Source of the DNA: a virus
Taxonomy: Duplodnaviria; Heunggongvirae; Uroviricota; Caudoviricetes
Length of the DNA: 34,736 nucleotides
Reading direction: 5' to 3' (one strand)
IMG/VR virus record: IMGVR_UViG_2734482783_000005
The position numbers and the translations under genes were made by a program. Shown piece after piece: positions 3,711 to 29,539 of this stretch; position 1 is the stretch's first letter; every line of letters begins with the position of its first letter. Under the pieces are notes generated by a model. It was not told the DNA's origin, did not search any database, and was given only the letters and a program-made list of their open reading frames with translations.

Positions 3711-4451
3711 TTAACTGGCGGTGACGGTAATTTCTGCAACCGCAGCAAACTCACCATTACCGGATACAACCGGAATGTTGACCTTGCCTGCAGCAACGCC
3801 GTTCACGGTGATGGTCATACCACTGACCGACACGGTGGCTTTTGTTTTATCCGCAGACACCGCACGAAAGCTCTTGTCGGTTACGCCCTCCGGCTGGAAG
3901 GCCACGGTCAGCGTGGTGCTCTGCCCTTTCACCACCGAGGTGCTGGCAGGCGTCACGGTCATGCCGGTTGCCGCTGTTACCGTGCTGCGATCTTCTGCCA
4001 TCGACGGACGTCCCACATTGGTGACTTTCACCGTGCGGGTGATCACTTCCTTCGCCGTCACCGCCTTACCGATACTGCTGACCCAGCCACGGAACACATC
4101 GACCGTGCCGTTCGGGAAGCGGATTTTATAGGCACGGGTATCGCCTTCATTAAACCACGCCAGCAGCGCCTGCTGCCCCTGCTCTCCGGGCATCCACGCC
4201 AGCGTGAAGCTGGTATCTCCGGCAGATTTCTGCCCCTGCCCGGTCGCAGTCCAGTCTGCATCTTCATCATCGAGATAGCTGTCGTCATAGGACTCAGCGG
4301 TCAGTTCGCCGGGCGTCAGGTCTTTAACTTTTGCCAGACGCGACCAGTCAACGTCTGAAAGCGGATTCGCATAAGGGTCACCGCTCCCCTTATAAACCCA
4401 CAGGGTGGTCCCGGCACCTTTCACCGGCATTGTAGGATTTGGTACAGGCAT
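3711..4451 (-). CDS. V: Major tail tube protein V (246 aa from the internal Met; Ig-like C-terminal domain)
   Basis: The ORF contains [36 protein letters not shown]..., the lambda gpV N-terminus. The track ORF begins 10 codons upstream; the start was chosen to give the lambda-length protein. Confidence 0.9.
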
Positions 4452-4458
4452 AGCGTCC

Positions 4459-4854
4459 TCACATTTCATAGGTAATGACATAAGTCAGATCGGCTGAACT
4501 CCACAGGCCCGCATCATCGTCGCGCCGGTAGTCATAGCCGCTGGCCACCATACTGGTGATCAAATCTGACAGTGCCGGGATATCGCTCATCACCGGATAA
4601 ATCCGGGACTCCATCCACGCATCCAGCTCTGAATCCGGCACCTGAGCAGGCAGGAAAACTTCGATATGCAGCTCCGCCTGCCAGGTATCGCTGTCCAGCT
4701 CTTCGCCCGTGTATTCAGCGCCGGTGAGATAAACGGCAACTGCCGGAAAATCCGCCTCATCAAAAACAGCGGGGCGACCATCAAAAAACGTCGCCCCGGT
4801 GTCATGCTTCTCCAGTGCATCCAGTACGGCTGCACGGAGTTCAGTATGTTTCAT
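4459..4854 (-). CDS. U: Tail terminator protein U (131 aa)
   Basis: [43 protein letters not shown]...; lambda gpU length and position. Confidence 0.9.
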
Positions 4855-5429
4855 CGCTTTATTACCATCCTCAGTTGATGCTGCAGCGCATAGCCCAGCT
4901 CTTTCGGAAGACGCTCACGCCGTATCCGCTCAATATTCTGTTTAAACGCCGTGGTCAGCGGCACCGCCATCGGGATTTTCACCACATCAATGGGGTAACG
5001 GTTTTTCCCGGCCACACGCTGCATGACATGCCAGCGGCCATTTTTCAGTTGCTGAATAAACGCGCCGGGAATACGACGGTTTCCCACCACAAGCACGCTG
5101 CCGCCACCTTTCAGGGATGAACGCTGCCCCTTTTTACGACGTCTGCGGCGGGAAAGGACAACCCGCGCGTTACCCAGCTTGATTACGGGCAAATCCCCCC
5201 GGTTAACCCTGATTCTGGCCTGCGGATTTTTGACCGTGGCCCTTTTCAGCCTGGCCCTTTCCTTTACCAGTTTCCGGCGTACCTTTGTCTCACGGGCAAC
5301 CTGTGACGCAGACTGCGATATCGCGGATGACGCAACGCGGTTAATGGCCATTGCGGCGGCACCAGGCACCGCCGTTTTGCTGATACGGCTGAGGTTTTCA
5401 ACGGCCTGCTCAAGACCTTTTATGGCCAT
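4851..5429 (-). CDS. Z: Tail completion protein Z (192 aa)
   Basis: MAIKGLEQAVENLSRISKTAVPGAAAMAINRVASSAISQSASQVARETKVRRK...; lambda gpZ length; overlaps the U start. Confidence 0.9.
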   Translation of the reverse strand: MAIKGLEQAVENLSRISKTAVPGAAAMAINRVASSAISQSASQVARETKVRRKLVKERARLKRATVKNPQARIRVNRGDLPVIKLGNARVVLSRRRRRKKGQRSSLKGGGSVLVVGNRRIPGAFIQQLKNGRWHVMQRVAGKNRYPIDVVKIPMAVPLTTAFKQNIERIRRERLPKELGYALQHQLRMVIKR

Positions 5430-5440
5430 ACATCCCCCTT

Positions 5441-5794
5441 TCAGCGGCGACGGTTAACGGCAGGCGGCACGCCACGCCCAAGCCAGAGATGACAGCTTCC
5501 GCCATCATCCGGCGAAATCCGGTCCACCCAGAAGTTTTCCTCGCCGATGGTCAGTGTGTCTCCACGCCGCAGCTGCCGCACATCATCAGTCCGGACAAAC
5601 AGGGACGGGCTGGAGCCTTCAACGCGCACCCCCTGTCCGGCATAGCTGATATTTTCAGGGTCATCAAAAACACCACGTATCACAGCACCGGACAGCTCAC
5701 CGGATGTCATGGTGGCTGACGTTCCCATGTACCCGCGTATCGTTTCATCGGCGCGGGCAATGGCAGCATCGAACAGGTTATCGGAATCAGCCAC
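5441..5794 (-). CDS. FII: Head-tail joining protein FII (117 aa)
   Basis: MADSDNLFDAAIARADETIRGYMGTSATMTSGELSGAVIRGVFDDPENISYAGQGVRVEG...; lambda FII length and order. Confidence 0.9.
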   Translation of the reverse strand: MADSDNLFDAAIARADETIRGYMGTSATMTSGELSGAVIRGVFDDPENISYAGQGVRVEGSSPSLFVRTDDVRQLRRGDTLTIGEENFWVDRISPDDGGSCHLWLGRGVPPAVNRRR

Positions 5795-20915: not shown

Positions 20916-21352
20916 GCAGCCCGATCTCCCCATCTCGCTTTCCACTCCAGAGCCAGTCTCGCTTCGTCTGACCACTTAACGCCACGCTCTGTACCGAATG
21001 CCTGTATAAGCTCTAATAGCTCCGCAAATTCGCCTACACGCATCCTGCTGGTTGACTGGCCTATTACCACAAAGCCATTCCCGGCAAGGTTAGGAACAAC
21101 ATCCTGCTGCTTTAATGCTGCGGTAAACACACACTTCCAGCTTTCTGCATCCAGCCAGCGACCATGCCATTCAACCTGACGAGAGACGTCACCTAAGCAG
21201 GCCCATAGCTTCCTGTTTTGGTCTAAGCTGCGGTTGCGTTCCTGAATGGTTACTACGATTGGTTTGGTTGGGTCTGGAAGGATTTGCTGTACTGCGTGAA
21301 TAGCGTTTTGCTGATGTGCTGGAGATCGAATTTCAAAGGTTAGTTTTTTCAT
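20912..21352 (-). CDS. ninB: NinB recombination protein (146 aa)
   Basis: [146 protein letters not shown]; lambda NinB. Confidence 0.9.
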   Translation of the reverse strand: MKKLTFEIRSPAHQQNAIHAVQQILPDPTKPIVVTIQERNRSLDQNRKLWACLGDVSRQVEWHGRWLDAESWKCVFTAALKQQDVVPNLAGNGFVVIGQSTSRMRVGEFAELLELIQAFGTERGVKWSDEARLALEWKARWGDRAA

Positions 21353-21425
21353 GACTTCCCTCTCCCCCAAATAAAAAGGCCTGCGATTACCAGCAGGCCT
21401 GTTATTAGCTCAGTAATGTAGATGG

Positions 21426-21716
21426 TCATCTTTTAACTCCATATACCGCCAATACCCGTTTCATCGCGGCACTCTGGCGACACTCCTTAAAAATCAGGTT
21501 CGTGCTCATCTTTCCTTCCCGTTCTTCCTTGGTAGCAAACCGGTAATACACCGTTCGCCAGACCTTACCTTCGATAACCAGAAGACCTGCCCGTGCCATT
21601 TTAGCCGCGGCCTGATTTATGCTGGTTACTGTTGCGCCTGTTAGCGCGGCAACGTCCGGCGCACAGAAGCTATTATGCGTCCCCAGGTAATGAATAATTG
21701 CCTCTTTGCCCGTCAT
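21426..21716 (-). CDS. ren: Ren (96 aa)
   Basis: MTGKEAIIHYLGTHNSFCAPDVAALTGATVTSINQAAAKMARAGLLVIEGKVWRTVYYRFATKEEREGKMSTNLIFKECRQSAAMKRVLAVYGVKR; lambda Ren. Confidence 0.9.
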   Translation of the reverse strand: MTGKEAIIHYLGTHNSFCAPDVAALTGATVTSINQAAAKMARAGLLVIEGKVWRTVYYRFATKEEREGKMSTNLIFKECRQSAAMKRVLAVYGVKR

Positions 21717-22414
21717 ACACTTGCTCCTTTCAGTCCGAACTTAGCTTTGATTTCTGCGATCTTCGCCAGAGCCTGTGCGCGATTTAGAGGTCTACCGCCC
21801 ATGACAGGAAGTTGTTTTACTGGTTCAGGGATCGCCTCACCACGGTTAATTCTCGCAGTCATATGGACAAGCTCATCTGCGGCCTTACGGCGTAATTCCG
21901 CATCAGTAAGCGCATTGGCCCGCATGTTCTGATACAGGTTGGTAACCAGCCAGTAGTGCGCATTTGATTTCCACGGATAAGACTCCGCATCCGGATACAG
22001 GCCTCGCTTCCGGCAATACTCGTAAACCATATCAACCAGCTCGCTGACGTTTGGCAGTCCGGCGATAACGGATGCTTCTTCCCGGCACCATGCAACAAAC
22101 TGCCCGGGTGATGGCAGAAATGGTCGATTCTGCCGACGGGCTACGCGCATTCCTGCGTTAACCTGTTCCATTGTGGTGATCCCGTTTTCCCGGAAAGCCA
22201 GAACCCACTGGCGGCGGATTTCGTTCAGTTCGTTCTGGTCACGGTTAGCCAGGCTCGCCGGGAAAGTTGCCAGTAACTGGCTGAACACACCGTTGATGAT
22301 CTGCGCTACCTGCTGTACCTGCGGCTTTTCGTCGTACTGTTCCGGCATGTTGTTGGCGATCCGACGCATCTGCTCACGGTCAAAGTTAACCATCTGTGCG
22401 GCGATGTTTTTCAT
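21713..22414 (-). CDS. P: Replication protein P (DnaB helicase loader), 233 aa
   Basis: MKNIAAQMVNFDREQMRRIANNMPEQYDEKPQVQQVAQIINGVFSQLLATFPASLANRDQNELNEIRRQWVLAFRENGITTMEQVNAGMRVARRQNRPFLPSPGQFVAWCREEA...; lambda P. Confidence 0.95.
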   Translation of the reverse strand: MKNIAAQMVNFDREQMRRIANNMPEQYDEKPQVQQVAQIINGVFSQLLATFPASLANRDQNELNEIRRQWVLAFRENGITTMEQVNAGMRVARRQNRPFLPSPGQFVAWCREEASVIAGLPNVSELVDMVYEYCRKRGLYPDAESYPWKSNAHYWLVTNLYQNMRANALTDAELRRKAADELVHMTARINRGEAIPEPVKQLPVMGGRPLNRAQALAKIAEIKAKFGLKGASV

Positions 22415-23310
22415 AGATCCACCCCGTAAATCCAGTCTGTGTTTGTCAGGTCGAGTTTTGGTTTGCTGGCTGTCACGACTGCCTGTTGCTTGTTACGGTT
22501 GATTTCGAGCTGGGTCCACTTGTCGCGGAGTTTGGCCGGACTCAGCACGTTACCGGACCAGAAGTTGTCCTGGCAGGCCCAGCGGAAAAGCACACACATA
22601 TCGCGGTGGTTACGTCCGTCACGTTCACGCATCAGGCGGATATCGTTAGCCCACCCAGCAAAATTCGGTTTTCTGGCTGATGGCGCGATGGTCTTCACCA
22701 TGTCAAACATCCACTCTGCGGCGGTCAGGTCTTCTGCTGTCCCCCACTTGCTGCCGCTCTGAATTGCAGCATCCGGTTTCACCACAGAAAGATCGTTTTC
22801 TGGCTGGTCAGAGGATTCGCCAGAATTCTCTGACGAATAATCTTTTCTTTTTTCTTTTGTAATAGTGTCTTTTGTGTCCCCCTGTTTTGAGGGATAGCAA
22901 TCCCCCAATTTGAGGGATGTTTTATCCCTCGTTTTAGGGGATTTTCCCTCGTTTTGAGGGATGCACCATTCTGAGATGTTTTTATTTGGTCCAAACATGC
23001 CGCCTTGCTGCTTGATAATATTCATTCTGACGAGTTCTAACTTGGCTTCATTGCACCGTTTGACAGGTAACTTTGTAATCTCGCTAAGTTGAGAATCGGT
23101 GATTCTGTCCATTGGTTTATTCCACCCATAGGTTTTACGCAGAATGGCAAGCAGCACTTTAAACTGTCGCTTGGTCAGATCTGCGCCCGAATAAGCCTCA
23201 AGCAGCATATTTGATAGTCTGGCGTAACCATCATCGAGATCTGCCACATTACGCTCCTGTCCGGCAAAGTTACCTCTGCCGAAGTTGAGTATTTTTGCTG
23301 TATTTGTCAT
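22411..23310 (-). CDS. O: Replication initiator O (299 aa)
   Basis: MTNTAKILNFGRGNFAGQERNVADLDDGYARLSNMLLEAYSGADLTKRQFKVLLAILRKTYGWNKPMDRITDSQLSEITKLPVKRCNEAKLELVRMNIIKQQGGMFGPNKNISEWCIPQNEGKSPKTRDKTSLKLGDCYPS...; lambda O, with ori inside the gene. Confidence 0.95.
   Translation of the reverse strand: MTNTAKILNFGRGNFAGQERNVADLDDGYARLSNMLLEAYSGADLTKRQFKVLLAILRKTYGWNKPMDRITDSQLSEITKLPVKRCNEAKLELVRMNIIKQQGGMFGPNKNISEWCIPQNEGKSPKTRDKTSLKLGDCYPSKQGDTKDTITKEKRKDYSSENSGESSDQPENDLSVVKPDAAIQSGSKWGTAEDLTAAEWMFDMVKTIAPSARKPNFAGWANDIRLMRERDGRNHRDMCVLFRWACQDNFWSGNVLSPAKLRDKWTQLEINRNKQQAVVTASKPKLDLTNTDWIYGVDL
22875..22962. repeat. ori-lambda iterons: four tandem O-binding repeats, with an adjacent AT-rich unwinding region at about 22810..22870
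   Basis: Four tandem ~20-bp repeats containing TCCC(T/C)C..GAGGGA-type cores (for example tccctcgttttgaggga and atccctcgttttaggggat), then an A/T-rich stretch containing ttttcttttttcttttgtaatag. Confidence 0.85.
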
Positions 23311-23342
23311 AATGACTCCTGTGGATTGATCCAGTAATTCCC

Positions 23343-23639
23343 TCAGAATTGCATATCAATTTGCTTAGAGTCCCCGGCGGCCACCGGGGATTTTTTCTTT
23401 GTGATTCCATCAAGCGCATACTTAAAAGCCCTACTAATCGGACTGATGTCTGATGCCATTCCGAAAGCACACAAGACTGAAGCAATAAATCTCCAGTCCG
23501 TTCTGCTTATCTTCGATTCATGACAGCCAATCATCTTTGCCAGACCGCGCTGAGTAAGCGTTGACAGGTTGATAAGTAAATCTGTTTCTGCGCGATCAAC
23601 GTCGCGCTGTGATAGTTTGCTGTAACTTGTTCGTTCCAT
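23343..23639 (-). CDS. cII: CII-like transcriptional activator (98 aa)
   Basis: MERTSYSKLSQRDVDRAETDLLINLSTLTQRGLAKMIGCHESKISRTDWRFIASVLCAFGMASDISPISRAFKYALDGITKKKSPVAAGDSKQIDMQF; same size and architecture as lambda CII, including a similar C-terminal tail, but diverged sequence. Confidence 0.75.
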   Translation of the reverse strand: MERTSYSKLSQRDVDRAETDLLINLSTLTQRGLAKMIGCHESKISRTDWRFIASVLCAFGMASDISPISRAFKYALDGITKKKSPVAAGDSKQIDMQF

Positions 23640-23724
23640 TTCTTAAGATTTCCAATAGTGAATAGCTAGTTGAAAGGTATGCGTGGAAACGCATATGGCC
23701 TTAGTTGGTCAGATATCTTGGAAC

Positions 23725-23772
23725 TCGCTTTTCAGCGACGTAGGACGAATGTCCGTTGTTACAAAGAGCGGC
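23725..23772 (-). promoter_or_regulatory. nutR-like site: boxA (GCCGCTCTTTGT) plus two hairpins, the second of boxB type with GAAA(A) loop
   Basis: Minus-strand reading: gccgctctttgtaacaacg-GACattcGTC-ctacgt-CGCTgaaaAGCG. This is collinear with the nutL-like site at 26208..26253, with compensatory changes in both stems. Confidence 0.55.
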
Positions 23773-23780
23773 TCCGCTTA

Positions 23781-23996
23781 TTAAGCGGCTTTGTGTTCCG
23801 GCGGGAACACGTCATCAAGACTTACTTTTGCGCCTAACTTATTTAGACACGCAACAATAGCACGGCATGTTTTAAGGTCTGGGAAGCGACGACCAGATTC
23901 CCAATGTCCGATAGCTCCCTGTGTGCATCCAACTGCCTTAGCAAGTGTTGTTTGAGAGATATTCAGTGACTCTCGATATTTTCGTAGGTTGCTCAT
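23781..23996 (-). CDS. cro: Cro-like repressor (XRE-family HTH, about 71 aa)
   Basis: MSNLRKYRESLNISQTTLAKAVGCTQGAIGHWESGRRFPDLKTCRAIVACLNKLGAKVSLDDVFPPEHKAA; divergent from cI; GGAGGG Shine-Dalgarno before the chosen start. The track ORF has a 23-codon upstream extension that I consider unlikely to be translated. Confidence 0.75.
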   Translation of the reverse strand: MSNLRKYRESLNISQTTLAKAVGCTQGAIGHWESGRRFPDLKTCRAIVACLNKLGAKVSLDDVFPPEHKAA

Positions 23997-24106
23997 ATGC
24001 CCTCCATAGTAACCTCGAATAAAAAATACAATATGTACTTTCCAAATACAAGCAAAAATACACATTGTGCATGGATGGTTCCAGTACAGAGCGTAATAAT
24101 AAGGAC
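23997..24106. promoter_or_regulatory. Divergent immunity control region (OR with PR/PRM) between cro and cI
   Basis: 110-bp AT-rich intergenic region containing several short palindromes (TACAATATGTA at 24027..24037; CACATTGTG) and repeated AAATACA motifs; operators are inferred by position only. Confidence 0.5.
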
Positions 24107-24766
24107 ATGAAAATGAAATGGTATGAACTGGCTAGATCCAGAATGAAAGAGCTCGGCATAACTCAAGAGAAGTTAGCCGAAGAGCTAGGTATGACGCAGG
24201 GTGGGATTGGACACTGGTTGCGCGGATCTCGTCATCCATCTCTTAGTGATATTGGTGTGGTGTTTAAATACCTTGGTATTGATAACATATCATTCAACCA
24301 CGACGGGACATTTTCACCTGTTGGCGAATACTCATCGGCCCCAGTTAAAAAACAATATGAGTACCCTGTATTTTCTCATGTTCAGGCTGGGATGTTCTCT
24401 CCAGAACTCAGAACCTTTACCAAAGGCGATGCGGAGAGATTGGTAAGCACAACCAAAAAAGCCAGTGACTCTGCATTCTGGCTTGAGGTTGAAGGTAACT
24501 CAATGACCGCACCAACAGGTTCCAAACCCAGTTTTCCTGACGGGATGTTAATTCTGGTTGACCCTGAGCAAGCTGTTGAGCCCGGCGATTTCTGCATAGC
24601 CAGACTTGGTGGTGATGAATTTACCTTCAAGAAACTGATCAGGGATAGCGGTCAGGTGTTTCTACAGCCACTAAACCCACAATACCCAATGATCCCATGC
24701 AATGAGAGTTGTTCCGTTGTGGGGAAAGTTATCGCTAGTCAGTGGCCTGAAGAGACGTTTGGGTAA
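24107..24766 (+). CDS. cI: CI prophage repressor: non-lambda N-terminal HTH domain fused to a lambda-type C-terminal LexA-like (S24) autocleavage/dimerisation domain
   Basis: N-terminus [45 protein letters not shown] is unlike lambda CI; the C-terminus ...[135 protein letters not shown] matches the lambda CI C-terminal domain. AAGGA Shine-Dalgarno before the chosen start. Confidence 0.9.
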
Positions 24767-24838
24767 TTCCAATTGTGATTAATAAAAAACCGATAGTGCA
24801 ACATGTTATTGTAAATTGTTGATATAGCAAGGTATCAC

Positions 24839-25741
24839 ATGAGCCAAAATCTTGATTCAACACTAGAAACATACATTTCTTGGCAGTTAGAGCAATTTAA
24901 AAATAACTTTTTCCCAAGCTGCGACGTCATAGCGTACTACGGTGGTATCTTTCCATGGTCAAAAGAAGTTTACCAACCAAAACTTGAGGCTATTGGGGAG
25001 ATGGCTAACAGTCGTACCAATAGATTTCTAGTTATTATACTCAATACAAATGGTGGCTCTGTTGAGTCTGTGGAAAAAATGGTAGAAATTACAAGGCATT
25101 TCTATCAAGAGGTATATTTTATCATTCCAGATATGGCCATGTCGGCAGGCACAATATGGTGTATGTCTGGAGATAAAATTTACATGAACTATGCTTCTTC
25201 ATTAGGCCCCATTGACCCTCAAGTGCAATCCTCTGACGGTAAATGGGTTCCTGCTTTGGGATACCTTGATAAAGTTGAAGAAATGATTACTAAATCCAGA
25301 GAAGGAACCATTACCCAAGCTGAACTAATGATGCTTAGTCAGTTAGATCTTGCGCACTTAAGGAGATACGAGCAAGCCAGAGAGCTATCAATAGACTTGC
25401 TTAAGAAGTGGCTTGTAGAGTATAAATTCAGAGAGTGGACGGTTCATCAAGGTAACACAAAACGAGGAAAGCTAGTTTCCAAGAGGGAAAAAGAAGCAAG
25501 AGCTAAAATGATCGCTACCGCTCTTAGTGACAACGGAAAGTGGCATTCTCACGGAAGAACGATAGGAATAAATACTCTTATCAATGACTTAAGAATTAAA
25601 GTAGAAGACTTTACATACGACAAAGATTTTAGCATGGCGTTAAAAAATCTGCACAACGTCATTAATGAATACATGTATAAGACAAATCGACAGGTTCTTG
25701 TTCTGTCTTCATTCCCCTTCTCAGAACAAAGTGAGTCATAA
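24839..25741 (+). CDS. ClpP/SppA-fold (S49/SDH-like) serine-peptidase-domain protein, 300 aa, in the cI-downstream slot
   Basis: ...RFLVIILNTNGGSVESVEKMVEITRHFYQEVYFIIPDMAMSAGTIWCMSGDKIYMNYASSLGPIDPQ... aligns by eye with the ClpP core (LNSPGGSV ... GQAASMGA), placing a candidate nucleophile Ser in MSAGT. AT-rich; C-terminal half Lys/Glu-rich and helical-looking; no TM segment seen. Confidence 0.7.
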   Translation: MSQNLDSTLETYISWQLEQFKNNFFPSCDVIAYYGGIFPWSKEVYQPKLEAIGEMANSRTNRFLVIILNTNGGSVESVEKMVEITRHFYQEVYFIIPDMAMSAGTIWCMSGDKIYMNYASSLGPIDPQVQSSDGKWVPALGYLDKVEEMITKSREGTITQAELMMLSQLDLAHLRRYEQARELSIDLLKKWLVEYKFREWTVHQGNTKRGKLVSKREKEARAKMIATALSDNGKWHSHGRTIGINTLINDLRIKVEDFTYDKDFSMALKNLHNVINEYMYKTNRQVLVLSSFPFSEQSES

Positions 25742-25912
25742 ATGAGCAAAGACAAATCACTGACACAGCAAGTGGCAGAAATACTTAGCAAGCAAAAAGT
25801 TAGCGAGCAAGGTAAAATGATTCAATCATTAAAGAACAACGGATTGATCAACAAGCCTGTTTTTACTTTGGCTTATGGACCTGATACTACAGTCTGCCAA
25901 ATGCACCAATAA
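25742..25912 (+). CDS. Small hypothetical protein (56 aa) coupled to the upstream peptidase-like gene
   Basis: MSKDKSLTQQVAEILSKQKVSEQGKMIQSLKNNGLINKPVFTLAYGPDTTVCQMHQ; its ATG directly follows the upstream TAA (TAAATG); below the 60-aa cutoff of the ORF track; followed by an intrinsic terminator. Confidence 0.45.
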   Translation: MSKDKSLTQQVAEILSKQKVSEQGKMIQSLKNNGLINKPVFTLAYGPDTTVCQMHQ

Positions 25913-25922
25913 CAAAACCCCA

Positions 25923-25948
25923 CCCGGCCTCAGCGCCGGGTTTTCTTT
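25923..25948 (+). terminator. Intrinsic terminator ending the cI-cargo operon (tImm-equivalent)
   Basis: Hairpin CCCGGC-ctcagc-GCCGGG (25923..25940) followed by TTTTCTTT (25941..25948). Confidence 0.7.
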
Positions 25949-26133
25949 GCCTCACGCCCCCACCTAAAGACACATAACCAAATGTATTTATTGAAAAATA
26001 AATAGATACAACTCACTAAACCACGCAATTCTGATCTCTCCTTACATCGCCGAGGCGATACACCCACGCTAAAAAACAACACTATTAAATACAAAGTGTT
26101 ATAAAAAATCACCCCATTTTAGAACAAATCGTA

Positions 26134-26162
26134 TTGACCAAATAAAGTACATATCGTACTAT
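26134..26162 (+). promoter_or_regulatory. Candidate PL promoter (-35 TTGACC, 17-nt spacer, -10 TACTAT) with an overlapping palindrome AGTAC-N5-GTACT
   Basis: TTGACC at 26134..26139 and TACTAT at 26157..26162, upstream of the nutL-like site and N; the palindrome at 26146..26160 sits in the spacer. Confidence 0.5.
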
Positions 26163-26207
26163 TTAACCGTCAGCAGGACGCTGGAAGCCAAACGGAACAG
26201 ACTGGCA

Positions 26208-26253
26208 GGCTCTTTAAACAACGTCGAACTCTCGACTACGTGGCTGAAAAGCC
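26208..26253 (+). promoter_or_regulatory. nutL-like site: boxA (GCTCTTTAA) plus two hairpins, the second of boxB type with GAAA(A) loop
   Basis: ggctctttaaacaacg-TCGAactcTCGA-ctacgt-GGCTgaaaAGCC; collinear with the nutR-like site, with compensatory stem changes. Confidence 0.55.
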
Positions 26254-26352
26254 AGATCACCCAACCACATGAGCTGTGGGATGCAATGCCGAAGCAACCG
26301 TCTCAGGAGGAGCTTCGAGATTGCATCGCCAAAGTTTATTCGGGAGGAATCT

Positions 26353-26625
26353 ATGTCCAGAAAAACAGAATTTAAAGGCACCGCAGCTTCTCGCCGTAGA
26401 GCTCGTCGCGCAAATCTGCAAAGTCAGGAGTCGATTAGCTCCGACAAGCTACACAGGCCAACCCCCTCACGAGTGGTCTTGCAATGCAAGCGCAAACCAG
26501 CAATGAGAGCAGAAGTAATAACACTGACAACGTTGACCAGAAAATATGAAGGTTCAACTTGTCTTCCGAACGTAGCTCTTTACGCGGCAGGCTACCGGAA
26601 ATCCAAACAACTGACAGCAAGATGA
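26353..26625 (+). CDS. N: N-like transcription antiterminator (90 aa) with arginine-rich motif
   Basis: MSRKTEFKGTAASRRRARRANLQSQESISSDKLHRPTPSRVVLQCKRKP...; Arg-rich N-terminal motif, GGAGG Shine-Dalgarno, position immediately downstream of PL/nutL. The track ORF starts 28 codons upstream at a less likely ATG. Confidence 0.7.
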   Translation: MSRKTEFKGTAASRRRARRANLQSQESISSDKLHRPTPSRVVLQCKRKPAMRAEVITLTTLTRKYEGSTCLPNVALYAAGYRKSKQLTAR

Positions 26626-26683
26626 CTTGTGTTGGTCGCCAGAAAATGAAATTAGGCAGCAAACCACTTATTTGAGGTGAGAT

Positions 26684-26770
26684 ATGGAAGAAGAATTTGA
26701 AGAGTTCGAAGAGCATCCTCAGGATGTGATGGAACAATACCAGGACTATCCGTATGACTACGACTATTGA
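26684..26770 (+). CDS. Small acidic protein (28 aa), lambda orf28-like
   Basis: MEEEFEEFEEHPQDVMEQYQDYPYDYDY; position between N and ral as in lambda; very short, so weakly supported. Confidence 0.35.
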   Translation: MEEEFEEFEEHPQDVMEQYQDYPYDYDY

Positions 26771-26954
26771 TAAAAATCAATGGTGTGGACAATTCAAGCG
26801 ATGCAATGGATGCAAGCTGCAATCGGAATGCATGGTTAAGCCTGAAGAAATGTTTCCTGTAATGGAAGATGGGAAATATGTCGATAAATGGGCAATACGA
26901 ACGACGGCAATGATTGCCAGAGAACTTGGTAAACAGAACAACAAGGCTGCCTGA
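26754..26954 (+). CDS. ral: Ral, restriction alleviation protein (66 aa)
   Basis: MTTTIDKNQWCGQFKRCNGCKLQSECMVKPEEMFPVMEDGKYVDKWAIRTTAMIARELGKQNNKAA; matches lambda Ral as I recall it. Confidence 0.8.
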   Translation: MTTTIDKNQWCGQFKRCNGCKLQSECMVKPEEMFPVMEDGKYVDKWAIRTTAMIARELGKQNNKAA

Positions 26955-27013
26955 TGGTGGCCTTTATTTTTTGGCCGTAAATAATTTCATGCTTATTACA
27001 ATCAAGGGGATAT

Positions 27014-27463
27014 ATGGAAGAACAAGCAAACAAGATTCTCGTAGAACTACTGCAAAAAGCCAGCAATGGAATAGACACGGCTGTTTCATTCAGCCAGGCG
27101 CAGATTCCTGATGTTGTTCATCAGTTGCTGCTATGGAATATGGTTGACAGTCTGATTAAAACATTAATAGCCATTCTAACAATCCCACTGGTTTTCTGGT
27201 TTATGAAGAAGCAGTGCCGAAGAGTTGAGACAGGTAAAATCGGTGATGAAGGATATTCATGGGAGAAGGGAAATCCCAAATACAGGCCGACAATGGTTTG
27301 GGATAGCAAAGGTGATATTAATCTTCTTATCATGCCATTAGTTGGAGTTTTGGCTCTGTGGGGGATTTTTATTATTAGTGCAGTAACCAATATGACATGG
27401 TTAAAAATTTTGCTGGCTCCAAAGCTTTACCTTATCGAATATGCAGCATCATTGGTTAAGTAA
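27014..27463 (+). CDS. Membrane protein, SieB-like superinfection exclusion candidate (149 aa)
   Basis: MEEQANKILVELLQKASNGIDTAVSFSQAQIPDVVHQLLLWNMVDSLIKTLIAILTIPLVFWFMKK... with two or three predicted TM helices; occupies the lambda sieB/git position between ral and Ea10. Confidence 0.5.
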   Translation: MEEQANKILVELLQKASNGIDTAVSFSQAQIPDVVHQLLLWNMVDSLIKTLIAILTIPLVFWFMKKQCRRVETGKIGDEGYSWEKGNPKYRPTMVWDSKGDINLLIMPLVGVLALWGIFIISAVTNMTWLKILLAPKLYLIEYAASLVK

Positions 27464-27467
27464 TTTC

Positions 27468-27495
27468 AGGCCGCATAGTCGGCCTTTATTTTTGG
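27468..27495 (+). terminator. Intrinsic terminator (tL-type) after the SieB-like gene
   Basis: Hairpin AGGCCG-catagt-CGGCCT followed by TTTATTTTT. Confidence 0.6.
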
Positions 27496-27612
27496 CACTA
27501 ACAACAGAATAAACACTGCACTGTGTATTCATTCCAACGAGTGAATACACGGAGCAATGTCGCTCGTAACTAAACAGGAGCCGACTTGTTCTGATTATTG
27601 GAAATCTTCTTT

Positions 27613-27640
27613 GCCCTCCAGTATGAGGGCGATTTTTTAT
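27613..27640 (+). terminator. Second intrinsic terminator in the early-left operon
   Basis: Hairpin GCCCTC-cagtat-GAGGGC followed by GATTTTTTAT. Confidence 0.55.
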
Positions 27641-27658
27641 CTGTGAGGATATGAATAG

Positions 27659-28027
27659 ATGTCAAACATCAAAAAATACATCATTGATTACGACTGGAAA
27701 GCATCAATAGAAATTGAAATCGACCATGACGTAATGACAGAGGAAAAACTTTACCAGATTAATAATTTCTGGTCAGACTCTGAATACCGACTCAATAAAC
27801 ACGGCTCTGTATTAAATGCTGTATTAATCATGCTGGCGCAACATGCTCTGCTTATAGCAATTTCAAGCGACTTAAATGCATATGGTGTTGTGTGTGAGTT
27901 CGACTGGAATGATGGAAATGGTCAGGAAGGATGGCCTCCAATGGATGGTAGCGAAGGAATAAGAATTACCGATATCGATACATCAGGAATATTTGATTCA
28001 GATGATATGACTATCAAGGCCGCCTGA
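27659..28027 (+). CDS. Ea10-like early protein (122 aa)
   Basis: MSNIKKYIIDYDWKASIEIEIDHDVMTEEKLYQINNFWSDSEYRLNKHGSVLNAVLIMLAQHALLIAISSDLNAYGVVCEFDWNDGNGQEGWPPMDGSEGIRITDIDTSGIFDSDDMTIKAA; position and length as lambda Ea10, identification from memory. Confidence 0.6.
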   Translation: MSNIKKYIIDYDWKASIEIEIDHDVMTEEKLYQINNFWSDSEYRLNKHGSVLNAVLIMLAQHALLIAISSDLNAYGVVCEFDWNDGNGQEGWPPMDGSEGIRITDIDTSGIFDSDDMTIKAA

Positions 28028-28099
28028 GTGCGGTTTTACCGCATACCAATAACGCTTCACTCGAGGCGTTTTTCGTTATGTATAAATAAGGAGCACACC

Positions 28100-28264
28100 A
28101 TGCAATATGCCATTGCAGGGTGGCCTGTTGCTGGCTGCCCTTCCGAATCTTTACTTGAACGAATCACCCGTAAATTACGTGACGGATGGAAACGCCTTAT
28201 CAACATACTTAATCAGCCAGGAGTCCCAAAGAATGGATCAAACACTTATGGCTATCCAGACTAA
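28100..28264 (+). CDS. cIII: CIII, inhibitor of FtsH that stabilises CII (54 aa)
   Basis: [54 protein letters not shown]; lambda CIII. Confidence 0.9.
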   Translation: MQYAIAGWPVAGCPSESLLERITRKLRDGWKRLINILNQPGVPKNGSNTYGYPD

Positions 28265-28376
28265 ATTCACTATCGCCACTTTTATTGGCGATGAAAAGAT
28301 GTTTCGTGAAGCCGTCGACGCTTATAAAAAATGGATATTAATGCTGAAACTGAGATCAAGCAAAAGCATTCACTAA
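28233..28376 (+). CDS. kil: Kil, FtsZ inhibitor (47 aa)
   Basis: [47 protein letters not shown]; lambda Kil; overlaps the cIII 3' end in another frame. Confidence 0.85.
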
Positions 28377-28451
28377 CCCCCTTTCCTGTTTACCTAATCA
28401 GCCTGGCATTTCGCGGGCGATATTTTCACAGCCATTTTCAGGAGTTCAGCC

Positions 28452-28748
28452 ATGAACGCTTATTACATTCAGGATCGTCTTGAGGCTCAGAGCTGGGCGC
28501 GTCACTACCAGCAGATCGCCCATGAAGAGAAAGAGGCAGAACTGGCAGACGACATGGAAAAAGGCCTTCCACAGCACCTGTTTGAATCACTCTGCATCGA
28601 TCATTTGCAACGCTGCGGGGCCAGCAAAAAAGCCATTACCCGTGCGTTTGATGACGATGTTGAGTTTCAGGAGCGCATGGCAGAACACATCCGGTACATG
28701 GTTGAAACCATTGCTCACCACCAGGTTGATATTGATTCAGAGGTATAA
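28452..28748 (+). CDS. gam: Gam, RecBCD inhibitor, short form (98 aa)
   Basis: [98 protein letters not shown]; lambda Gam. Confidence 0.9.
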
Positions 28749-28753
28749 AACGG

Positions 28754-29539
28754 ATGAGTACAGCACTCGCAACGCTGGCTGGGAAGCTGGCTGAACGTGT
28801 CGGCATGGATTCTGTCGACCCACAGGAACTGATCACCACTCTTCGCCAGACGGCATTTAAAGGTGATGCCAGCGATGCGCAGTTCATCGCATTGTTGATC
28901 GTCGCCAACCAGTACGGCCTTAATCCGTGGACGAAAGAAATTTACGCCTTCCCTGATAAGCAGAACGGCATCGTTCCGGTGGTGGGCGTTGATGGCTGGT
29001 CCCGCATCATCAATGAAAACCAGCAGTTTGATGGCATGGACTTTGAGCAGGACAATGAATCCTGTACATGCCGGATTTACCGCAAGGACCGTAATCATCC
29101 GATCTGCGTTACCGAATGGATGGATGAATGCCGCCGCGAACCATTCAAAACTCGCGAAGGCAGAGAAATCACGGGGCCGTGGCAGTCGCATCCCAAACGG
29201 ATGTTACGGCATAAAGCCATGATTCAGTGTGCCCGTCTCGCCTTCGGATTTGCTGGTATCTATGACAAGGATGAAGCCGAGCGCATTGTCGAAAATACCG
29301 CATACACTGCAGAACGTCAGCCGGAACGCGACATCACTCCGGTTAACGATGAAACCATGCAGGAGATTAACACTCTGCTGATCGCCCTGGATAAAACATG
29401 GGATGACGACTTATTGCCGCTCTGTTCCCAGATATTTCGCCGCGACATTCGCGCATCGTCAGAACTGACACAGGCCGAAGCAGTGAAAGCTCTTGGATTC
29501 CTGAAACAGAAAGCCACTGAGCAGAAGGTGGCAGCATGA
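28754..29539 (+). CDS. bet: Bet (Red-beta single-strand annealing protein), 261 aa
   Basis: [100 protein letters not shown]...; lambda Bet. Confidence 0.95.

Follow-up and report, generated by a model that had tools for sequence, protein, structure and literature searches.

A two-hairpin nutL/nutR pair of the H-19B type beside a VT2-Sakai-type N gene in a lambdoid prophage

We examined IMG/VR virus record IMGVR_UViG_2734482783_000005, a 34,736-nucleotide stretch of Caudoviricetes DNA (the window), in which a first-pass annotation made from the letters alone had proposed two nut sites, nutL and nutR, each with two RNA hairpins. We conclude, with a probability of roughly 0.8, that the pair are the nutL and nutR of a lambdoid prophage whose immunity and N module is of the VT2-Sakai type, that they follow the plan of phage H-19B, and that the additional hairpin in their spacer has a passive role. 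The two-hairpin layout is not peculiar to this phage – it is the published H-19B/933W/HK97 type, which the first-pass annotation overlooked. The plan is published, and the window represents another member of that class.

Results

Two collinear nut sites in the early transcripts

As originally proposed, the sites are nutL and nutR: each early promoter is followed, on its transcribed strand, by one of them, nutL upstream of the N gene and nutR between cro and cII (coordinates in Table 1). Read in the direction of transcription, each runs from boxA through a short ACAAC segment, a spacer stem-loop (hairpin 1) and a UACG linker to the boxB hairpin. Re-reading the sequences returned this collinear motif twice in the window and reproduced the strings first quoted. 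The hairpins were found where they had been placed, but each stem is one pair longer than first written: 5 rather than 4 base pairs (bp) for nutL hairpin 1, 4 rather than 3 bp for nutR hairpin 1, and 5 rather than 4 bp for both boxB elements. The boxA of nutL is directly followed by ACAAC, whereas in nutR the dinucleotide UA intervenes. With boxA counted as 9 nucleotides (nt), 23 nt separate boxA from boxB at both sites, close to the earlier estimate of roughly 22 nt.

Both boxA elements are close to the consensus CGCUCUUUA, as in lambdoid nut sites; the reference sequences are the rrn boxA UGCUCUUUA and the lambda boxA CGCUCUUA (PMC2724277). Other lambdoid features are likewise present, namely the position on the transcribed strand after an early promoter, the boxB stem and loop type, and an adjoining N gene with an N-terminal arginine-rich motif. 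Specific to the H-19B type are the spacer stem-loop (5 bp in nutL, 4 bp in nutR) and the sequence homology to the H-19B nut sites.

The composite pattern GCTCTTT-N1-3-AACAACG-N10-14-CTACGT-N-GCTGAAAAGC has exactly two matches in the 34.7-kb window, both of them the nut sites, and none in 100 dinucleotide-preserving shuffles. An Rfam search of positions 21000-29000, at E values up to 1, placed no family over either nut site and matched only RF01804. That match (28087-28145, + strand) is a full-length Lambda_thermo, the lambda cIII thermoregulator RNA, at 88.5 bits and an E value of 4e-21.

The spacer hairpin covaries across relatives

BLAST searches with the 63-64 nt sites found nutL in 63 phage records at 92-100% identity – among them VT2-Sakai, the Stx1 (Shiga toxin 1)-converting phage, Stx2 II, 1717, 2851, YYZ-2008, Nil2 and 2B8 – and nutR in 184 records, with identity down to ~86%. 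The more distant nutR matches are sites that already carry annotations: nutR in 933W and mEp234, 'putative NutR' in Salmonella phages epsilon34 and g341c. Immunity regions were compared for 933W, mEp234, POCJ13, epsilon34, an Enterobacter phage, Salmonella 'sal5', a Hafnia phage, HK620, P22, mEpX2, HK97 and H-19B. We found 451 N relatives in IMG/VR and examined 80 IMG/VR loci with the window's N type. The first N-based collection held only N genes that are 98-100% identical, and it informs on loop versus stem variation, not on diversity. A degenerate-pattern scan of IMG/VR gave, among the matches listed, mostly chance hits; the useful variants were loci L124, L193, L204 and L205.

A covariance model, R1, was built from 19 distinct sites. 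It matched only the two nut sites in the window (E values of 3e-15 and 4e-12). In every phage of the class, H-19B included, it gave a single nutL and a single nutR, at the expected positions and on the expected strands (nutL upstream of N; nutR in the cro-cII interval). R1 had no match in P22, HK620, mEpX2 or the Hafnia phage Pocitis76, whose nut sites have a single hairpin. The comparison with P22 and other lambdoid phages that had been called for separates a two-hairpin class from single-hairpin phages.

Among the 19 distinct sites, CUACG is invariant and ACAA(C/U)G (near-)invariant, and the slot between them holds four unrelated stems: GGAC/GUCC in nutR of all members, GUCGA/UCGAC in nutL of phages with the window's N type, GAUUC(A)/(U)GAAUC in nutL of H-19B, 933W, HK97, mEp234, epsilon34 and others, and GGUGA/UCACC in nutL of two uncultivated prophages. 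In a MAFFT alignment of these sites, four of the five pairs of hairpin 1 are altered on both sides and 96.8% of cells pair, a percentage biased upward because one collection step demanded a stem. The site sets used for covariation were found with patterns or models that included the conserved flanks, and that step additionally demanded a stem of at least 4 bp; collections without a hairpin 1 requirement gave the same stems and the same picture. The covariation score is 0.975, compared with 0.203 for shuffled alignments (0 of 500 reach the observed value) and at most 0.243 for slid partners, and RNAalifold independently predicts the same helix.

The claim that compensatory changes preserve pairing in both hairpins is therefore borne out by related phages. 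The evidence is strong because of this comparison; the two window sites, on which the claim had been based, are only suggestive by themselves.

Variation within the stem-loop follows the same pattern. Across the 80 loci with the window's N type, the ten stem positions of nutL hairpin 1 never vary and all differences fall in the loop (ACUC, ACAC, CUC, AUC, GCAC); the commonest variant is a 3-nt CUC loop, compared with ACUC in the window. Hairpin 1 loops across the class share no motif (AUUC, ACUC, ACAC, CUC, GAGA, GUGA, AAUA, UAAC, CGGA and others), and such free variation fits a passive structural role. Natural variation – stems swapped, loops free, pairing kept – agrees with pairing mattering and sequence not. 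A further helix between ACAAC and CUACG was considered and ruled out on inspection, as it would consist of only two weak pairs across a 3x3 internal loop.

Secondary-structure prediction recovered both hairpins, but at nutL the minimum-energy fold replaces boxB with a long-range pairing (see Discussion). Most relatives have the two-hairpin fold as their minimum-energy structure.

Relation to H-19B, lambda and other phages

H-19B, together with 933W, HK97 and mEp234, has the same element order, the same ACAA(C/U)G and CUACG flanks and the same genome positions as the window. The H-19B nutR has been described as containing 'two hairpins' (PMC3526286). Its sequence, CCGCUAUUUUCACAAUGGACAUUCGUCCUACGUCGCUGACAAAGCGAG, was rebuilt from antisense oligonucleotides RS662-RS665 (PMC3526286 supplement) and read directly in AF034975. 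The nutR spacer hairpin GGACAUUCGUCC is identical in the window and in H-19B, 933W, HK97, mEp234, epsilon34 and others; for H-19B it was read at 5636-5679 of locus L216 and from oligonucleotide RS663 (PMC3526286). The H-19B nutR also has the boxB stem UCGCU/AGCGA and the UACG of the window nutR, and differs from it in boxA and in the five-base loop.

Other differences are more extensive. H-19B has a boxA of CGCUAUUUU at nutR and none recognisable at nutL, whereas both window elements are near consensus. Its boxB loop is a 5-nt GACAA where the window has a 4-nt GAAA, and the arginine-rich motif of N differs accordingly. The H-19B nutL spacer is ~43 nt long, with an extra upstream hairpin and a GAUUC/GAAUC stem, compared with 23 nt and GUCGA/UCGAC in the window. 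The two N proteins (127 amino acids in H-19B, 90 in the window) are ~40% identical and share an MxR(R/K)TxFxG...RRR N-terminus, an HRPT(L/P)SR segment and a P22-like C-terminus.

Genetic work on H-19B by Neely and Friedman, reported in Mol Microbiol in 2000, is said to have named a dyad-symmetry stem-loop in the spacer the 'reducer', which would bring flanking sequences together. NUT reportedly loses activity when one arm of the dyad is disrupted and regains it with compensatory changes, and the whole dyad can be deleted with little effect. The same study reportedly found that H-19B N needs NusA, but not NusB, S10 or boxA. This independence of NusB, S10 and boxA may not carry over to the window phage, because its boxA elements are near consensus. 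In H-19B, for whose nutR binding and reporter assays have been published, N and NusA together protect the spacer and boxB, and arginine-rich-motif mutants lose antitermination (PMC3526286); NusA binds the nut spacer (PMC2724277).

The closest sites belong to VT2-Sakai, the Stx1-converting phage (AP005153), Stx2 II, 1717, 2851, YYZ-2008, Nil2, 2B8 and E212, in which nutL is 98-100% and nutR 97-98% identical over 63-64 nt and N is 97-99% identical. The nut sites carry no annotation in the records checked (AP005153, VT2-Sakai and others).

Salmonella phages epsilon34 and g341c and Enterobacter phage vB_Ecl_MII_001 have an identical nutR core, GGACAUUCGUCCUACGUCGCUGAAAAGCGA, with a GAAA tetraloop, and the arginine-rich motif of their N belongs to the same tetraloop class as that of the window. 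The epsilon34 record labels the 14-mer corresponding to the window's nutR boxB 'putative NutR - boxB', and g341c also has a 'putative NutR' annotation. These three phages differ from the window in having a long H-19B-type nutL with a GAUUCA/UGAAUC stem, a GNRA loop and a degenerate boxA, and an N of 120 amino acids.

Lambda and P22 have in common with the window the boxA consensus, a 5-bp boxB closed by U-A, a G-N-R...A loop, an arginine-rich N-terminus of N, and the genome positions of the sites. P22 gp24 resembles the C-terminus of the window N. The layout departs from that of lambda, as the first-pass annotation had said: lambda spacers are 8-9 nt long and unstructured (PMC2724277). P22 nutL has a spacer of ~9-11 nt, again with no hairpin, and both phages have five-base boxB loops with one base extruded. 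As had also been noted, the departure accompanies a non-lambda N. The window nutL is itself a mosaic: up to and including boxA it matches the pL leader of HK620, mEpX2 and P22, and beyond boxA it keeps to the H-19B plan, with a spacer of only 23 nt.

Three features set the lineage apart: a true GNRA boxB with a distinct N motif, a consensus boxA and its own nutL stem. The literature searched gave no description of these lineage-specific points (the tetraloop boxB with its own N motif, the consensus boxA and the mosaic nutL).

boxB loop type tracks the N motif

A scripted count in register found a full 5-bp boxB stem directly after CUACG in 29 of 29 distinct sites. Position 1 takes four pair types (U-A, G-C, C-G, A-U) and position 2 takes two (G-C, C-G); positions 3 and 4 do not vary, and the closing pair is U-A, with U-G once. 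MAFFT and model-derived alignments misplaced the extra base of GACAA pentaloops, and the 78.8% boxB pairing obtained from them was discarded, since misregistering the pentaloops by one base makes it an underestimate.

The loops of the 29 sites are GAAA (19), GACAA (9) and GCAA (1). The single GCAA belongs to the nutL of Shigella phage POCJ13 (2605-2650 of locus L087, - strand), whose nutR loop is GAAA. Both are GNRA sequences, which supports a true GNRA tetraloop for this boxB class.

Loop type tracks the N motif without exception in the sample, and nutL and nutR are always concordant. GAAA and GCAA tetraloops are accompanied by the motif class ...A[AS][GS]RRR[AE][RQH]R[AS]xLQ (94 loci, 12 distinct motifs), and GACAA by NSRSRRRERLK[AV]KALANG (13 loci). 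A phmmer search of the window N against PDB chains gave no match.

Two further loci were noted. Salmonella phage 103203_sal5 (L090) has a discordant nutL boxB, GCUC-CGUCAAC-GAGC, with an unrelated 7-nt loop (4852-4900, + strand); its nutR (2189-2232, - strand) reads UCGCU-GACAA-GGCGA with a U-G closing pair, and its N is of the H-19B motif type. In L124 (IMGVR_UViG_3300012995_000046), an open reading frame (ORF) ~100 nt downstream of nutL encodes a mosaic N that combines a tetraloop-class N-terminal motif, MTRRTQFSGSASGRRRERRAHLQS, with a lambda-N-like C-terminus (...KVRGKSIPLI) in place of the P22-like ...AAGYRKSKQLTAR.

Lambda N reads a GNRA-like fold closed by U-A, formed from a GNRNA pentaloop with one extruded base (PMC12027372). 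That extruded base is absent from boxB of the window lineage. In lambda, the extruded base matters for the N-NusA-boxB complex. We tentatively suggest, at somewhat less than even odds, that N and boxB of this lineage (VT2-Sakai-type phages, POCJ13, epsilon34-type phages and several uncultivated prophages) form a separate recognition class, in which a GNRA loop of just four bases (GAAA or GCAA), lacking an extruded base, would be read by G[ST]A[AS][GS]RRR[AE]xR[AS]xLQ. If so, the window N would not cross-react with GACAA boxB of the H-19B/P22 type and would assemble with NusA without an extruded loop base. Combined with a consensus boxA, such a system might once more depend on NusB/S10, unlike that of H-19B. 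We found no account of VT2-Sa-type nut sites or of a natural tetraloop boxB in the literature searched, though one elsewhere is possible.

Genomic context

The window includes the immunity and early-regulation region of a lambdoid prophage, and its + strand equals the lambda leftward strand. The gene order is O/P-like replication genes (-), cII (-), nutR, cro (-), cI (+), two extra ORFs with a terminator, a pL-like promoter, nutL and N (+). The -10/operator segment of the pL-like promoter recurs in inverted orientation at 24020-24041, between cI and cro (repeat I3), as expected for oL/oR, and pR is also placed between these two genes. Residues 13-19 of N form the SRRRARR arginine-rich motif, and the protein is 98.9% identical to N of the Stx1-converting phage, 1717, 2851 and YYZ-2008. 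Many Stx-converting and related coliphages carry the same module at ~97% identity, apart from inserted ORFs.

Table 1. Positions of the nut-site elements and neighbouring features in the window.
Feature	Position	Strand	Sequence or motif	Basis or context
nutL, whole site	26209-26254	+		between pL-like promoter and N
nutL boxA	26209-26217	+	DNA GCTCTTTAA; RNA GCUCUUUAA	rrn-like consensus
nutL single-stranded segment	26218-26222	+	ACAAC	5' of hairpin 1
nutL hairpin 1 (spacer stem-loop)	26223-26236	+	GUCGA-ACUC-UCGAC	folding, covariation
nutL linker	26237-26240	+	UACG	hairpin 1 to boxB
nutL boxB	26241-26254	+	UGGCU-GAAA-AGCCA	5-bp stem, U-A closing pair, GNRA tetraloop
nutR, whole site	23770-23725	-		between cro and cII
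nutR boxA	23762-23770	-	DNA CGCTCTTTG; RNA CGCUCUUUG	starts 10 nt after cro stop codon
nutR segment	23755-23759	-	ACAAC	
nutR hairpin 1 (spacer stem-loop)	23743-23754	-	GGAC-AUUC-GUCC	
nutR linker	23739-23742	-	UACG	
nutR boxB	23725-23738	-	UCGCU-GAAA-AGCGA	
cII	23343-23639	-		Phage_CII, E 2e-31; first gene downstream of nutR
cro	23781-23999	-		HTH_3; nutR placed after its stop codon
cI	24107-24766	+		HTH and Peptidase_S24
pL-like early leftward promoter	26134-26162	+	TTGACC-17-TACTAT	consensus scan; transcribes nutL and N
N antiterminator gene (90 amino acids)	26353-26625	+	arginine-rich motif GTAASRRRARRANLQ	Pfam PF25694 N_peptide, E 7e-32, full length

Several neighbouring features were observed. 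An insert at 24839-25941 (+ strand), between cI and pL in the place of rexAB in lambda, carries ORFs of 300 and 56 amino acids, the former with a weak match to SDH/ClpP-like serine proteases (PF01972, E value 1.6e-10). A strong bidirectional terminator (25922-25941) follows the two ORFs. The insert is missing from most close relatives (query coverage only 66%) and could represent moron or defence cargo.

A long hairpin of -39.6 kcal/mol (z -3.85; 0 of 200 shuffles as stable), with its core inverted repeat at 26280-26295/26312-26327, occupies the leader that separates nutL from the N ribosome-binding site (26255-26351, + strand). In lambda, the corresponding position is that of the RNase III-processed N-leader hairpin that controls N translation. 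In Hafnia phage Pocitis76 (L091) a tRNA-Gly is annotated at 3949-4028, within the nutL-N leader, in a stretch whose counterpart in other phages forms the N-leader hairpin. A 6-bp hairpin, CCGCUU-AAU-AAGCGG (23774-23788), covers the cro stop codon just upstream of the nutR boxA and is not kept in relatives with other cro types.

Discussion

Proposed mechanism

Our analysis establishes the position and orientation of the sites, two RNA helices with covariation, invariant flanks, and the co-variation of loop type with N motif. The mechanism we propose is that the pL and pR transcripts would carry a consensus boxA, the presumed NusB/S10 binding site, followed by the short conserved single strand ACAAC, a small spacer hairpin of free sequence whose pairing is kept, as covariation indicates, the conserved UACG linker, and finally the 5-bp boxB with its U-A closing pair and GNRA tetraloop. 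The arginine-rich N-terminus of the phage's own N would bind the boxB loop, as suggested by lambda and P22 precedents and by the pairing of loop types with motifs. Together with NusA on the single-stranded spacer, N would make RNA polymerase termination-resistant, so that it could read through terminators lying past N and on into cII-O-P. The spacer hairpin is most likely a passive 'reducer', as proposed for H-19B: it would fold away 12-14 nt, and its sequence and loop would carry no information. Once folded, the 23-nt spacer would leave about ACAAC, UACG and the helix end between boxA and boxB, like the 8-9 nt of lambda.

Some points weigh against this interpretation. The function ascribed to the window's N/nut pair derives from homology and position, and the passive 'reducer' role leans on the reported H-19B genetics. 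The nutR hairpin 1 is nearly invariant in all relatives, which taken alone is conservation and not covariation, and the pairing percentage for hairpin 1 is somewhat inflated by site collection. In addition, the minimum-energy fold of nutL pairs boxA with the 3' half of boxB (-15.1 kcal/mol, compared with -12.8 kcal/mol for the two-hairpin fold).

Alternative explanations

It is possible, though in our view unlikely, that hairpin 1 is an active element – a docking site for NusA or Rho, a second point of contact with N, or a modulator of pausing or Rho loading at nutR/tR1. The H-19B spacer is protected by NusA and N and also by Rho alone, and nutR overlaps the tR1 rut site (PMC3526286). The nutR hairpin GGACAUUCGUCC hardly varies, even among hosts and N types that differ widely, and in the window (23743-23754) it contains ACAUUC, as does the NusA-binding lambda nutR spacer cACAUUCca; this ACAUUC may be left over from a lambda-like spacer or may be a genuine NusA contact. 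At nutL, however, lineages have entirely different stems and unrelated loops, so that no sequence-specific contact could be conserved there. Deletion of the H-19B dyad, with its reportedly small effect, also speaks against an active hairpin. If there is such a role, nutR is the likeliest place for it, given its nearly invariant, ACAUUC-containing hairpin.

The long-range fold raises the prospect of a riboswitch-like toggle, which we regard as very improbable. Here boxA would pair with the boxB loop and 3' arm, enclosing hairpin 1 (26208-26253, + strand; 23726-23770, - strand), and both elements would stay hidden until NusB/S10 or N binds. This fold is the minimum-energy structure at nutL and ties at nutR, and the first four bases of boxA (GGCU, CGCU) equal the boxB 5' arm at each site. 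It is not, however, the minimum-energy fold in the 933W, epsilon34 or L205 nut sites or in P22 nutL, and canonical boxA is absent from H-19B-type nutL sites. The G before GCUCUUU in nutL was inherited from a pL leader common to HK620 and mEpX2, whose boxB is unrelated, and during transcription the local hairpins would be the first to form. We set the toggle aside because the long-range pairing is not shared by relatives; the pairing is probably incidental.

That the dyads act in DNA, for example as protein-binding palindromes, so that the similarity between the sites would not be an RNA feature, is more improbable still. The stems are perfect short DNA palindromes, and in our scan the nutL stem also appeared among terminator-like hairpins of the opposite strand, but the asymmetric flanks (boxA, ACAAC, CUACG) follow transcription at both sites, which leaves the two sites mutually inverted in DNA. 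The G-U pair in the sal5 nutR boxB (UCGCU/GGCGA) would be an A-C mismatch on the other strand, pairing is conserved where stem sequences are not, and the homologous H-19B sites work as RNA. Chance resemblance of two intergenic stretches, which the short length of the elements might suggest, is ruled out by the pattern counts in window and shuffles, the covariance E values, and the conserved position of the sites in dozens of phages.

Implications

The nut sites of the window belong to a characterised class and are near-identical in many deposited phage genomes. For specialists, the natural variation of hairpin 1 offers an independent comparative confirmation of the H-19B 'reducer' idea. The only mildly novel angle is the natural tetraloop boxB, a plain GNRA loop, and the N motif that goes with it; the two could be used as a small orthogonal peptide-RNA pair and could allow a test of the need for an extruded base in antitermination. 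Current understanding is left unchanged by these points. The practical value lies in annotating the nut sites in records of VT2-Sakai-type Stx phages. In many pathogenic Escherichia coli prophages, these sites would govern delayed-early expression and, through it, the route to expression of Q and Shiga toxin.

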